This document shows, one piece after another, positions 1,695-3,246 of a stretch of 32,000 nucleotides of DNA. The notes beneath the pieces are model-generated. The model did no database searches. It saw only the letters and a program-made list of their open reading frames with translations, and had not been told where the DNA came from. Made by a program: the position numbers and the translations under genes. Position 1 is the stretch's first letter. Each line of letters begins with the position of its first letter. This DNA is from Candidatus Electronema halotolerans (GTDB lineage Bacteria; Desulfobacterota; Desulfobulbia; Desulfobulbales; Desulfobulbaceae), in assembly GCA_942493095.1 (NCBI GenBank), contig OW818675.1, positions 630,001 to 662,000 on the forward strand, read 5' to 3'.

Positions 1695-1848
1695 AGTGAA
1701 CGGAACACGGTGCGATTCCGTGGCATTCCCGATGCTGTGACCCCGAATAAGCTCTTCAGCAGATTGCAGCCACTGTTTTTCGTAAACGGGAAGGCTGCTG
1801 AATGAGCGGGGAAGCCAGAAGACGAACTGAATGTCGATATTTTTTTTG
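1695..1848 (+). promoter_or_regulatory. Cobalamin (B12) riboswitch in the leader of the ThiC-family gene
   Basis: The conserved cobalamin-riboswitch core elements are visible. They are GGAACACGGTGCGATTCCGTGGC (1702-1724), CCCGATGCTGTGA (1728-1740), GCCACTG (1769-1775), GGGAAGGC (1788-1795) and a B12-box-like AGCCAGAAGAC (1813-1823). A T8 run follows at 1840-1847, then a strong 15-bp hairpin at 1862-1900 just before the start codon. The outer boundaries are approximate. Confidence 0.65.
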
Positions 1849-1935
1849 CGAACGCGATGGCAAAGGGTTCCGCAGAGCAATTGTTCTGCTGGAACCCTTT
1901 CCGCTTCCGGCAGGGCAAAACCTACAAGGTGCGTC

Positions 1936-3246
1936 ATGAAAACCCAATTGGAAGCAGCCCGCGCAGGCATCATCACCAACGCAGTCCAAACAGTGGCCCA
2001 AAATGAGGGACAGGAGCCGGAGCTGCTCAGAAGCCGGGTGGCTGCCGGAGAAGTGGTCATCCTCAGCCATCCGCAGCGGCCCGAACAGAAAATTGTCGGC
2101 ATTGGCACAGGCCTGCGGACCAAAGTCAATGCCTCCATCGGCACCTCGTCTGACATCTGCGACCTTGAGCTGGAAGTGCGCAAGGCCCGGATAGCCGAGA
2201 AAGAGGGCGCGGACACGTTGATGGAGCTGTCCGCTGCCGGAGACATGGACGCAATCCGTCGGGCTGTGCTGGCAGCCACGAGCCTGCCGGTCGGCACCGT
2301 GCCCCTGTATCAAGCCTTCCGGGAAACAGCTCTGCAACACGCTGATCCAAGCAAGCTTGATTCTGAACAGCTTTTTGATCTCATCGAGCAGCAGCTTGCT
2401 GACGGCATCAGTTTTATGGCCATTCATTGCGGCATCAACCGCTGGACAGTGGAGCGGTTGCGCAGGCAGGGCTACCGCTACGGCGGGCTGGTCTCCAAGG
2501 GCGGCACGTTCATGGTGGCGTGGATGGACCGCACTGGCAAGGAAAATCCGCTTTACGAGCAGTTTGACCGAGTCTGCGGCCTGATGAAGAAATATGATGC
2601 GGTGCTCTCGCTGGGCAATGGCATCCGGTCCGGGGCGATTCACGACAGCCACGACCGGGCGCAAGTGGCGGAAATGGTGGTCAACTGCGAGCTGGCTGAA
2701 CTGGGCCGGAACATGGGCTGTCAGATGATGGTTGAAGGTCCCGGCCATCTGCCGCTGGATGAAATCGCGGCCAACATCCTGCTGGAAAAACGGATGAGCG
2801 GCAATGCTCCCTATTATGTGCTCGGCCCGCTGCCGGTGGACAGCGGCGCAGGCTATGATCACATTGCCAGTGCCATTGGCGCGGCCCATTCCGCCCGCTA
2901 TGGCGCAGACCTGATCTGCTACATCACCCCGGCAGAACATTTAGCTCTGCCCAATGAGGCAGATGTCCGCGAAGGAGTCCGGGCCGCCCGGCTTGCAGTC
3001 CGCATCGGCGATCTGGTCAAATATCCGCAGACCCGTGAAAATGAGAAGGCGGCAGCCAAGGCCCGGCGGGACATGCGCTGGAGCGATCTCGATCAGCATC
3101 TCCTGTTCCCGGAAACCGCCCGCAGGCTGCGCCAAAGCAGAATGCCGGAGCAGCAGGAAACCTGCACAATGTGCGGCGATTTTTGCGCCATGAAGCAAGG
3201 GGCGGCAGTTTTCAGCAGAGACATTGCCGGAGACAAGGCGGCTTGA
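1936..3246 (+). CDS. thiC: ThiC-family radical SAM enzyme, short form. Generic annotation would be phosphomethylpyrimidine synthase ThiC; the B12-riboswitch context suggests 5-hydroxybenzimidazole synthase BzaF/BzaA-B
   Basis: The product MKTQLEAARAGIITNAV...GIGTGLRTKVNASIGTS...MAIHCGI...MVEGPGH... shows typical ThiC blocks and a C-terminal Fe-S motif, CTMCGDFCA. I chose the ATG at 1936, which has AAGGTG 5 nt upstream. The track ORF start at 1831 would overlap the riboswitch and its T-run. Confidence 0.9.
   Translation: MKTQLEAARAGIITNAVQTVAQNEGQEPELLRSRVAAGEVVILSHPQRPEQKIVGIGTGLRTKVNASIGTSSDICDLELEVRKARIAEKEGADTLMELSAAGDMDAIRRAVLAATSLPVGTVPLYQAFRETALQHADPSKLDSEQLFDLIEQQLADGISFMAIHCGINRWTVERLRRQGYRYGGLVSKGGTFMVAWMDRTGKENPLYEQFDRVCGLMKKYDAVLSLGNGIRSGAIHDSHDRAQVAEMVVNCELAELGRNMGCQMMVEGPGHLPLDEIAANILLEKRMSGNAPYYVLGPLPVDSGAGYDHIASAIGAAHSARYGADLICYITPAEHLALPNEADVREGVRAARLAVRIGDLVKYPQTRENEKAAAKARRDMRWSDLDQHLLFPETARRLRQSRMPEQQETCTMCGDFCAMKQGAAVFSRDIAGDKAA

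Follow-up and report, generated by a model that had tools for sequence, protein, structure and literature searches.

A ThiC-labelled gene behind a cobalamin riboswitch in a cable-bacterium-like member of the Desulfobulbaceae almost certainly encodes BzaF, a look-alike of ThiC

Which enzyme is encoded by a ThiC-family gene that stands behind a cobalamin riboswitch? The locus that raises this question belongs to a cable-bacterium-like member of the Desulfobulbaceae and lies in a stretch of 32 kb, analysed at its full length and referred to below as the window. BzaF is a paralogue of ThiC that carries out a radical SAM rearrangement of aminoimidazole ribotide (AIR) to 5-hydroxybenzimidazole, the compound from which anaerobes derive the benzimidazole lower ligands of their cobamides. 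The original prediction had read the gene as BzaF-type rather than ThiC. This reading is corroborated by a clade recovered in 200 of 200 bootstraps, by the replacement of ThiC Asp383 with Asn, by the 648.8 bits that an orthologue reaches on the BzaF HMM and by the RF00174 aptamer upstream. We propose with high confidence that positions 1677-3316 form a single-gene cassette composed of a cobalamin riboswitch, a terminator-type platform and an orthologue of bzaF (Table 1). Judged from its sequence, the ThiC-labelled protein is almost certainly BzaF, a known look-alike of ThiC, and its product would be 5-hydroxybenzimidazole formed from AIR.

Table 1. Features of the bzaF-type unit and its downstream boundary (positions in the window)
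Feature	Position	Strand	Details
Cobalamin riboswitch aptamer (RF00174)	1677..1845	+	71.1 bits vs gathering score 31.5, E=7.6e-16
Linker, aptamer to platform hairpin	1840..1861	+	T8 run 1840-1847; conserved GATGG 1856-1860
Platform hairpin AAAGGGTTCCGCAGAGC...GTTCTGCTGGAACCCTTT	1862..1900	+	-27.4 kcal/mol; homologous to the intrinsic terminator stem found in relatives
Degenerate U-tract CCGCTTCCGGC	1901..1911	+	relatives have TTTTATT(T)CC
Shine-Dalgarno-like AAGGTG	1926..1931	+	4 nt 5' of the start codon; read from the sequence
bzaF-type gene (putative 5-hydroxybenzimidazole synthase, ThiC-family radical SAM)	1936..3246	+	436 aa
Strong hairpin, no U-tract	3273..3316	+	27 nt past the stop codon, -32 kcal/mol
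Sigma-70-like promoter TTGACC, 18 nt, TATAAT	3348..3377	+	11/12 matches

The leader matches RF00174 over the full length of the model (positions 1-189 of 189, Rfam cmscan), with a score above the gathering threshold. A permissive Rfam scan of 1400-2000, accepting matches up to E<=10, returned this aptamer and one noise miRNA match (E=7.4) and nothing else; RF00059, the TPP riboswitch model, had no match in this interval. The TPP riboswitch located 5' of E. coli thiC, used as a positive control, was recovered by the same scan at 74.8 bits. The leader motifs quoted in the original prediction were all present, namely GGTGCGATTCC at 1709, CCCGATGCTGTGA at 1728, GCCACTG at 1769, GGGAAGGC at 1788 and the B12-box-like AGCCAGAAGAC at 1813, together with the T8 run; the B12-box-like element (1813-1823) is situated inside the aptamer. 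Its statement that a THI-box core is missing was likewise upheld, neither CTGAGA nor GGGGTGC being present in 1551-1945. The start given for the locus, 1695, needs correction, as it falls inside the aptamer.

The expression platform had been attributed to the T8 run and the hairpin next to the start codon, an attribution of which only the hairpin part stands. The hairpin is real, and its stem is conserved in an alignment of 23 leaders, with both partners changed in 6 of 15 pairs, that is, covariation. The T8 run lies 5' of this hairpin in a variable linker, overlaps the final aptamer positions and is not conserved in relatives, Electrothrix reading ...GATTTCACGAATATGG... in this segment. We rejected it as a terminator tail, given that no hairpin was found 5' of it and that it is not conserved, whereas 33 loci share a conserved GATGG[CT]AAAGGGTT. 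The bzaF leaders of Desulfobulbales and Desulfobacterales, which combine RF00174 with an intrinsic terminator, share with the window the full-model aptamer, a platform opening with the conserved GATGGCAAAGGGTT and the homologous stem; they differ from it in that they do not have the T8 linker and in that the U-tract of the window is broken by CCGC. In the alignment of this tract, CCCTTTTTTTATT of the relatives stands against CCCTTTCCGCTT of the window. A hairpin followed by a T-rich tract is found in 68 of 79 orthologous loci, and a terminator scan of the window leader passed no terminator-like site. On this sequence comparison, the platform hairpin is read as the homologue of the conserved terminator, with a U-tract that has decayed in the window.

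It can be hypothesised that plentiful cobamide binds the leader RNA and that bzaF expression then drops, which would make the riboswitch an OFF switch and the leader a feedback control of lower-ligand synthesis. Because the U-tract of the terminator has decayed, we can only infer that termination is still the readout in this organism. It is possible, if somewhat doubtful, that in this lineage the riboswitch now acts on translation initiation, or is leaky, and that termination has been lost. Such a change is suggested by the tract itself, which reads CCCTTTCCGCTTCC in the window but CCCTTTTTTTATT in relatives such as Electrothrix, and by three Electronema leaders (L003, L005 and L086) that do not have the lower stem and whose hairpins enclose the Shine-Dalgarno sequence. 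However, the platform hairpin is fully kept in the window, and the occlusion of the Shine-Dalgarno sequence predicted there is weak and incomplete. Moreover, the hairpin at the 3' end of the gene is likewise devoid of a U-tract, so U-poor terminators may work in this organism. For a possible antiterminator formed by the aptamer with the platform, the predicted duplexes involve different partners at different loci.

The coding sequence is taken to start at the ATG at 1936, since the resulting N-terminus, MKTQLE, agrees with that of most of 80 orthologues; a longer open reading frame from 1831 is disfavoured because it would overlap the aptamer. The hairpin past the stop codon is likely the 3' end of a monocistronic transcript, and the terminator scan is blank at this hairpin because the T run is missing. 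The promoter that follows is assigned to the downstream genes and delimits the bzaF unit. The gene has a GC3 of 0.70, typical of the core genes in the window, on which ground a horizontal acquisition was rejected.

The original prediction had expected automatic annotation to name the protein ThiC, and this is the case. The protein belongs to PF01964 and passes the cutoffs of two NCBIfam ThiC equivalogs (NF009895, 557.7 against 410; TIGR00190, 505.6 against 460), its close RefSeq homologues are all named ThiC among the matches listed, and its PDB homologues are ThiC chains only. Together with a radical SAM machinery that is entirely intact, these labels are what speaks for a genuine HMP-P synthase that would be regulated by cobalamin instead of TPP. 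However, the BzaB representative (P0131) passes the same two cutoffs, from which it follows that the ThiC models do not separate the paralogues. Several homologues 76-80% identical to the window protein carry the JGI label '5-hydroxybenzimidazole synthase'. The active site was mapped onto the AtThiC residues of PMC4389238. Tyr286, His322, Ser342, Arg386, Glu422, His426, Tyr449, Glu489 and His490 are kept, as are the three cluster cysteines, and the ligands of SAM, metal, cluster and phosphate are all retained (in the window protein, C410, C413 and C417 for the cluster and H271 and H335 for the metal, with E334 and R231 also aligned). Exactly three substrate or cofactor contacts are changed relative to ThiC, N228S, R343K and D383N in AtThiC numbering; the signature residues of the window protein are S67, K188 and N228, of which Ser67 aligns with AtThiC Asn228 and N228 with AtThiC Asp383. 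The S-K-N triplet is common to 320 of 320 clade sequences, and the AIR contacts Asn228 and Asp383 are therefore replaced in all of them. Neither residue varies among the three characterised ThiCs (At, Cc and Ec), and a high conservation of both in ThiC orthologues has been described. When either is mutated in AtThiC, HMP-P formation is lost or lowered: no HMP-P is formed by D383A or N228D, and partial activity is retained by D383N. In BzaF, the position of ThiC Asp383 is occupied by Asn, and only three differences affect the hydrogen bonding to AIR (PMC12661338).

The phylogeny is in line with these replacements. When 73 members of the family were placed in a neighbour-joining tree with 200 bootstraps, the S-K-N clade that contains the window protein was set apart in 200 of 200 replicates, and the bona fide HMP-P synthases fell outside it, as had been anticipated. 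Within the clade, it is 73-87% identical to other members, the best named matches among those listed being Candidatus Electronema proteins at 85-86% amino-acid identity; identity falls to 63% for P0121, 52% for P0122 and at most 44.5% for any further family representative, including 42% for the BzaB representative and 38% for the E. coli, Caulobacter and Arabidopsis ThiCs. The genomic neighbourhood of the orthologues points in the same direction. Of 79 orthologous loci (GTDB species), 74 have a cobalamin riboswitch immediately 5' of the gene and in its orientation, and none has a TPP riboswitch upstream on that strand. The TPP riboswitch present at one locus (L052) belongs to a divergent thiS, and the neighbouring ThiC-like gene is under a cobalamin riboswitch. 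In Desulfobulbus and Desulfogranum, cobT follows the bzaF-type gene: D. japonicum has the order bzaF-cobT, and D. propionicus has bzaF-cobT-methyltransferase, with a CobT that matches TIGR03160 at 432 bits. With two AIR contacts replaced, a separate clade, no TPP riboswitch and orthologues that adjoin cobT and not thi genes, a genuine ThiC at this locus appears improbable in the extreme. Compared with the ThiCs of A. thaliana (4S25-4S29), C. crescentus (3EPM) and E. coli (b3994), the window protein shares PF01964, its identity extends over the whole catalytic core, and the ligands for phosphate, SAM, the second metal and [4Fe-4S] are common to both, as is presumably the substrate AIR; it differs in the three contact residues, in its separate clade, in the cobalamin riboswitch that replaces a TPP riboswitch and in the cobT neighbourhood of its relatives.

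Another ThiC paralogue, of the BzaA/BzaB type or with some other product, is scarcely credible in place of BzaF. The family does comprise several paralogous clades in which the contact residues are altered, the patterns being L-R-D (P0131, BzaB), N-K-N (P0137 and P0144) and T-R-N (P0122 and P0139). The BzaA/BzaB pair of Eubacterium, Moorella and other acetogens resembles the present case in that its members are ThiC paralogues producing HBI and linked to cobalamin riboswitches. However, the window protein scores 492.8 bits on the BzaB model TIGR04386, below the cutoff of 700, and P0131 has L-R-D at the positions where the window protein has its triplet. Furthermore, bzaA and bzaB are paired at a distance of 2 kb or less (Shelton et al.), and no second ThiC-like gene is adjacent, nor any second PF01964 gene present, in the window. 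A more elaborate proposition would be that the protein is the sole ThiC-family enzyme of the organism and supplies some HMP-P in addition to 5-hydroxybenzimidazole, so that the thiamine pyrimidine would come under B12 control. The partial activity of AtThiC D383N is favourable to it, since Asn at that position alone cannot exclude some HMP-P synthesis, and so is the solitary gene in four different cable-bacterial contexts. Against it, three contact residues are changed and not one, and N228 is among them, although the mutant tested was N228D and the natural residue is Ser. G. sulfurreducens, according to what Hazra et al. are said to have reported in 2015, carries both thiC and bzaF, which also counts against a sole enzyme. 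We regard such a bifunctional protein as very unlikely; if it existed, thiamine pyrimidine synthesis would be coupled to cobamide status.

The assignment to BzaF is further substantiated by a published classification. The two characterised BzaF sequences are not among the 73 members of the tree, and the link to them runs via the published HMM hit table and an orthologue 76% identical to the window protein. This clade member (P0105, WP_028580504.1) appears in the BzaF-HMM hit table of Shelton et al. with 648.8 bits against a cutoff of 564.1. This score lies between the 640.4 bits of the characterised G. sulfurreducens BzaF and the 649.9 bits of its D. acetoxidans counterpart on the same HMM, which also argues against another paralogue. 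Two further clade members, from Desulfogranum mediterraneum (L014, 77%) and Desulfocicer vacuolatum (L023, 75%), belong to species that figure in the same table. A homologue search seeded with a Geopsychrobacteraceae orthologue led to relatives from Desulfopila and Desulforhopalus, with no Geobacter or Desulfuromonas among the matches listed. With the characterised BzaFs (GSU3005 of Geobacter sulfurreducens and that of Desulfuromonas acetoxidans), the window protein has in common a stand-alone ThiC-family radical SAM architecture of about 436-442 aa, the short-form CX2CX3C cluster motif, Asn at the position of ThiC Asp383 and a gene downstream of a cobalamin riboswitch. It is distinguished from them by its cable-bacterium-like Desulfobulbaceae host, by a leader terminator devoid of a U-tract and by the absence of any cob gene within 32 kb.

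The gene stands alone, as the original prediction had it. Within the 32-kb window, there is no cobT, no cob/cbi gene and no bzaC, and no thi gene either. A solo bzaF is also the arrangement of further cable bacteria and of Desulfopila. The end product of the pathway may be 5-hydroxybenzimidazolyl cobamide, conditional on the gene set elsewhere in the genome; a precedent is provided by G. sulfurreducens, which has a bzaF-only gene set and makes this cobamide. A query with the bzaC-like methyltransferase of Desulfobulbus gave no cable-bacterial name among the matches listed, a weak negative.

The work of Hazra et al. from 2015 reportedly belongs to the knowledge of bzaF with which the present assignment agrees. 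The result is otherwise an ordinary re-annotation that is consistent with what has been established for this gene (Shelton et al. 2019). The annotation error persists in RefSeq and NCBIfam, where the ThiC label extends to the whole clade, including the Candidatus Electronema and Electrothrix proteins. As a consequence of this label, metabolic reconstructions would assign thiamine pyrimidine synthesis to these organisms in error and overlook a capacity for anaerobic synthesis of benzimidazole lower ligands. Most work on cable bacteria has used sediment or enrichment cultures, and searching the literature for a link between them and vitamins brought up media recipes only. Cable bacteria probably produce the base of their cobamides themselves and detect cobamide by riboswitch, which is of interest for the design of media and for vitamin cross-feeding.

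Two other genes of the window were considered in connection with bzaF and rejected. The 96-aa open reading frame at 3493-3783, a candidate for a conserved partner, has no family match and is unrelated to the 96-aa open reading frame that follows bzaF in Electronema PJ. The B12-binding radical SAM protein encoded at 12109-13503 was considered as a candidate BzaD; BzaD is its best NCBIfam match, but the score of 262.9 bits falls short of the cutoff of 450, and the gene is paired with one for an LpxL-like acyltransferase.

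The assignment of the ThiC-family gene behind the cobalamin riboswitch as BzaF-type rather than ThiC, made in the original prediction, is supported at the sequence level by the clade of its product, by its active-site residues and by the published BzaF-HMM score of its orthologue P0105. The riboswitch motifs quoted in that prediction were all found where it had placed them, and the THI-box fragments, which it had reported missing, were not found in the leader. The aptamer scored 71.1 bits on RF00174, whose gathering score is 31.5 (E=7.6e-16), over model positions 1-189 and hence at full length. 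No TPP riboswitch (RF00059), the element named as possible counter-evidence, was detected in positions 1400-2000 by a permissive Rfam scan at E<=10, which returned the aptamer and one noise match only; this negative result is meaningful, since the same tool gave a TPP riboswitch match of 74.8 bits ahead of E. coli thiC. We also scanned 79 orthologous loci from GTDB species representatives (80 loci minus one that is 5'-truncated). RF00174 lies directly upstream and on the same strand in 74 of them, typically with ~90-110 nt between the aptamer end and the ATG, and one further locus has a sub-threshold match (29.5 bits) farther upstream; a TPP riboswitch on the strand of the gene was found in none of the 79. 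At L052, a locus of a Desulfobacteraceae MAG, a divergent thiS-like gene is under a TPP riboswitch (79.5 bits) and bzaF follows a cobalamin riboswitch, a layout that places thiamine and cobamide regulons back to back in one MAG. Extra cobalamin riboswitches were observed directly after bzaF in a Desulfobulbus MAG (L065, 2352-2555) and, in Desulfogranum japonicum (L084, 4362-4543, minus strand), before a DUF3450/ExbB/ExbD/TonB cluster that is probably a cobamide uptake system.

Features of the window and of the orthologous locus L052, with their coordinates
Sequence	Feature	Position	Strand	Remark
Window	Cobalamin riboswitch aptamer (RF00174)	1677-1845	+	Rfam covariance model
Window	Expression-platform hairpin, whole stem kept	1862-1900	+	-27.4 kcal/mol
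Window	Shine-Dalgarno AAGGTG	1926	+	ahead of coding sequence
Window	bzaF-type coding sequence, 436 aa	1936-3246	+	
Window	Hairpin at 3' end of gene, without U-tract	3273-3316		-32 kcal/mol
Window	Sigma-70-like promoter, 11/12 matches	3348-3377		opens next unit
Window	B12-binding radical SAM gene	12109-13503	+	best NCBIfam match BzaD (TIGR04385), 262.9 vs cutoff 450
Window	Fusion of molybdopterin-oxidoreductase domains and NifS-type cysteine desulfurase, 1134 aa	19440-22844	-	TIGR03402, 538 bits
Window	EgtD histidine methyltransferase	23055-24080	+	TIGR03438, 321 bits vs cutoff 291; divergent from 19440-22844
L052	TPP riboswitch-thiS unit	207-654	-	
L052	Cobalamin-riboswitch-bzaF cassette side	737-913	+	

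When 1.84 billion cluster representatives were searched exhaustively, identity fell abruptly, with one representative at 62%, one at 53% and the rest at <=45%. A neighbour-joining tree was built from 73 full-length family members, comprising representatives, 24 orthologues from named genomes, the further close homologues P0105, P0049, P0011 and P0095, and, as its characterised members, the ThiC of E. coli, Caulobacter and Arabidopsis. Tested for clustering with bona fide HMP-P synthases, the window protein fell in a separate clade, recovered in 200/200 bootstrap replicates, and its identity is 73-87% with clade members, 42% with the BzaB representative and 38% with the three characterised ThiCs. 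Ligand contacts were mapped from AtThiC (PMC4389238), with the numbering anchored on CcThiC E413 = AtThiC E422. The phosphate ligands Tyr286, His322, Ser342 and Arg386, the ribose ligand Glu422, Tyr449 and the SAM ligands Leu259, Glu489, Leu493 and Met572 (AtThiC numbering) are kept in the window protein, as are the two metal histidines and all three cluster cysteines. Exactly three contacts are changed from AtThiC to the window protein, namely Asn228 to Ser67, Arg343 to Lys188 and Asp383 to Asn228, and this Ser/Lys/Asn set is common to all 320 available clade sequences (240 database homologues, 79 genome loci and the window protein). BzaF has Asn in place of the ThiC Asp, and its homology model shows just three differences touching hydrogen bonding to AIR (PMC12661338); in AtThiC, no HMP-P is formed by the D383A and N228D variants, and D383N is only partially active. 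The enzyme is therefore predicted to be catalytically intact, with a substrate pocket of BzaF rather than ThiC type. Asn at the Asp383 position also occurs in other ThiC-family clades from metagenome contigs, whose residues at 228 and 343 differ from those of the BzaF clade (T-R-N in P0122 and P0139, N-K-N in P0137 and P0144); P0122 branches next to the BzaF clade as its sister, with bootstrap support of 189/200.

The tie to characterised BzaF passes through the hits tabulated by Shelton et al. 2019 and P0105, which is WP_028580504.1 of Desulfobulbus japonicus and shares 76% identity with the window protein. This orthologue scores 648.8 bits with the BzaF HMM (cutoff 564.1), and the characterised enzymes of Geobacter sulfurreducens (WP_010943635.1) and Desulfuromonas acetoxidans (WP_006000218.1) score 640.4 and 649.9 (Shelton et al. 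2019, supplementary table). The same table includes D. mediterraneus and Desulfobacterium vacuolatum DSM 3385 (Shelton et al. 2019), whose orthologues match the window protein at 77% (L014) and 75% (L023) identity. As had been predicted, automatic annotation goes wrong here: the protein exceeds two NCBIfam ThiC equivalog cutoffs (557.7 vs 410; 505.6 vs 460), and all close homologues with a RefSeq name are called 'phosphomethylpyrimidine synthase ThiC'. Several homologues at 76-80% identity are named '5-hydroxybenzimidazole synthase' by JGI. The NCBIfam BzaB model is not reached (492.8 vs cutoff 700), and the NCBIfam scan of the protein returned no BzaF model. The BzaB representative P0131 is above its own model cutoff (733 bits) and also above both ThiC cutoffs, so the ThiC models let in paralogues; the curated models do not settle the choice between ThiC and BzaF. 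BzaF behind a cobalamin riboswitch is an already known family, of which the window gene is a new member in a lineage whose orthologues are still labelled ThiC; the relabelling is a useful correction, unsurprising to the specialist.

With regard to the lower ligand, G. sulfurreducens carries bzaF only and makes 5-hydroxybenzimidazolyl cobamide, which gives a precedent for predicting this product; the prediction depends on there being no bzaC-E elsewhere in the genome. The cassette of riboswitch and gene has only unrelated genes around it in four cable-bacterial contexts and in Desulfopila; being common, the solo arrangement seen in the window says little by itself. In D. japonicum cobT follows the gene, and in Desulfobulbus propionicus (L085, 5857-9331) the order is bzaF, cobT (TIGR03160, 432 bits) and then an O-methyltransferase-family gene, which looks like a bzaF-cobT-bzaC-like operon. 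A search with this methyltransferase returned 151 relatives, including DUF2284-fused forms in Geobacter, and many were judged to share contigs with bzaF in Desulfobulbus and Desulfogranum. No cable-bacterial name occurs among the named minority of these relatives, which weakly supports the 5-hydroxybenzimidazolyl prediction. Under the published scheme, the L085 operon predicts a 5-methoxybenzimidazole base, at odds with the 5-methylbenzimidazolyl cobamide reported for D. propionicus (Krautler 1988, as cited in the Shelton supplement); gene content is thus no simple guide to the base made.

The expression platform of the relatives is a classical intrinsic terminator, in which a conserved GATGG[CT]AAAGGGTT opens a long stem and AACCCTTTTTTT closes it. 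A stable hairpin with a T-rich tract is present at 68 of 79 loci, and across 23 aligned leaders both partners have changed in 6 of the 15 stem pairs. We propose that the switch is of the OFF type, with cobamide binding favouring the terminator; duplex predictions named a different antiterminator partner from locus to locus. Of the platform originally predicted, the hairpin stands, being kept in the window and conserved in relatives, and the T8 run (1840-1847) was rejected as a terminator tail, because it precedes the hairpin in a non-conserved linker. The tail after the window hairpin is CCCTTTCCGCTTCC, its Electrothrix counterpart CCCTTTTTTTATT, and no terminator-like site in the window leader passed a terminator scan. 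The platform may still terminate transcription despite its poor U-tract, a reading favoured by the hairpin behind bzaF, which lacks a U-tract as well. Alternatively, control may have moved towards translation; in other Electronema leaders the lower stem is lost and hairpins enclose the Shine-Dalgarno sequence. The hairpins on both sides of bzaF are strong and lack a U-tract, a hint that this genome may commonly use U-poor terminators.

The N-terminus MKTQLE agrees with most of the 80 orthologues; a longer reading frame from 1831 was rejected, as it would cross the leader hairpin and overlap the 3' end of the aptamer. The promoter behind the gene starts the next unit, so that bzaF is probably monocistronic, and the GC3 of bzaF, 0.70, usual for core genes of the window, indicates that it is native and not recently acquired. 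Two short public contigs encode an identical protein and share the genes behind it, namely those for ResB and CcsA of cytochrome c biogenesis and then a multihaem cytochrome. The closest named homologues belong to Candidatus Electronema (85-86% identity), Candidatus Electrothrix (~80%), D. propionicus (77%) and D. japonicum (76%), which places the source of the window among cable-bacterium-like Desulfobulbaceae. In Candidatus Electrothrix sp. YB6 (L008, CP178758.1, a complete MAG) the orthologue at 1001-2408 is broken up, with residues 1-25 at 1001-1075 and residues 29-434 at 1191-2408 in a different frame after a gap of ~115 nt, which points to a pseudogene or else to an error in the assembly.

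Elsewhere in the window, the B12-binding radical SAM gene shows that the organism uses cobamide. It was rejected as bzaD, its score being far under the cutoff and its partner an LpxL-like lipid acyltransferase gene, which overlaps and then follows it (pair at 12109-14443, plus strand). The next NCBIfam match is a ladderane-type lipid radical SAM model (230.5 vs 360), and the role of the product is probably lipid-related. The fusion and EgtD genes are arranged as published for MES, the metallopterin-dependent ergothioneine synthase (PMC9516567), and their low GC3 (0.47 and 0.36, vs ~0.70 in core genes) suggests that they were acquired. Two stretches, 8761-11265 and 14549-16445, look like a mosaic of mobile DNA amid core genes: two low-GC ORFs (33-37% GC, 176 and 362 aa) with no family match precede a fragment of an IS66 transposase, and farther on lie an HNH/DUF3276 protein (41% GC) and an IS630-type transposase in two pieces, one ORF with the HTH and one with the DDE_3 domain.
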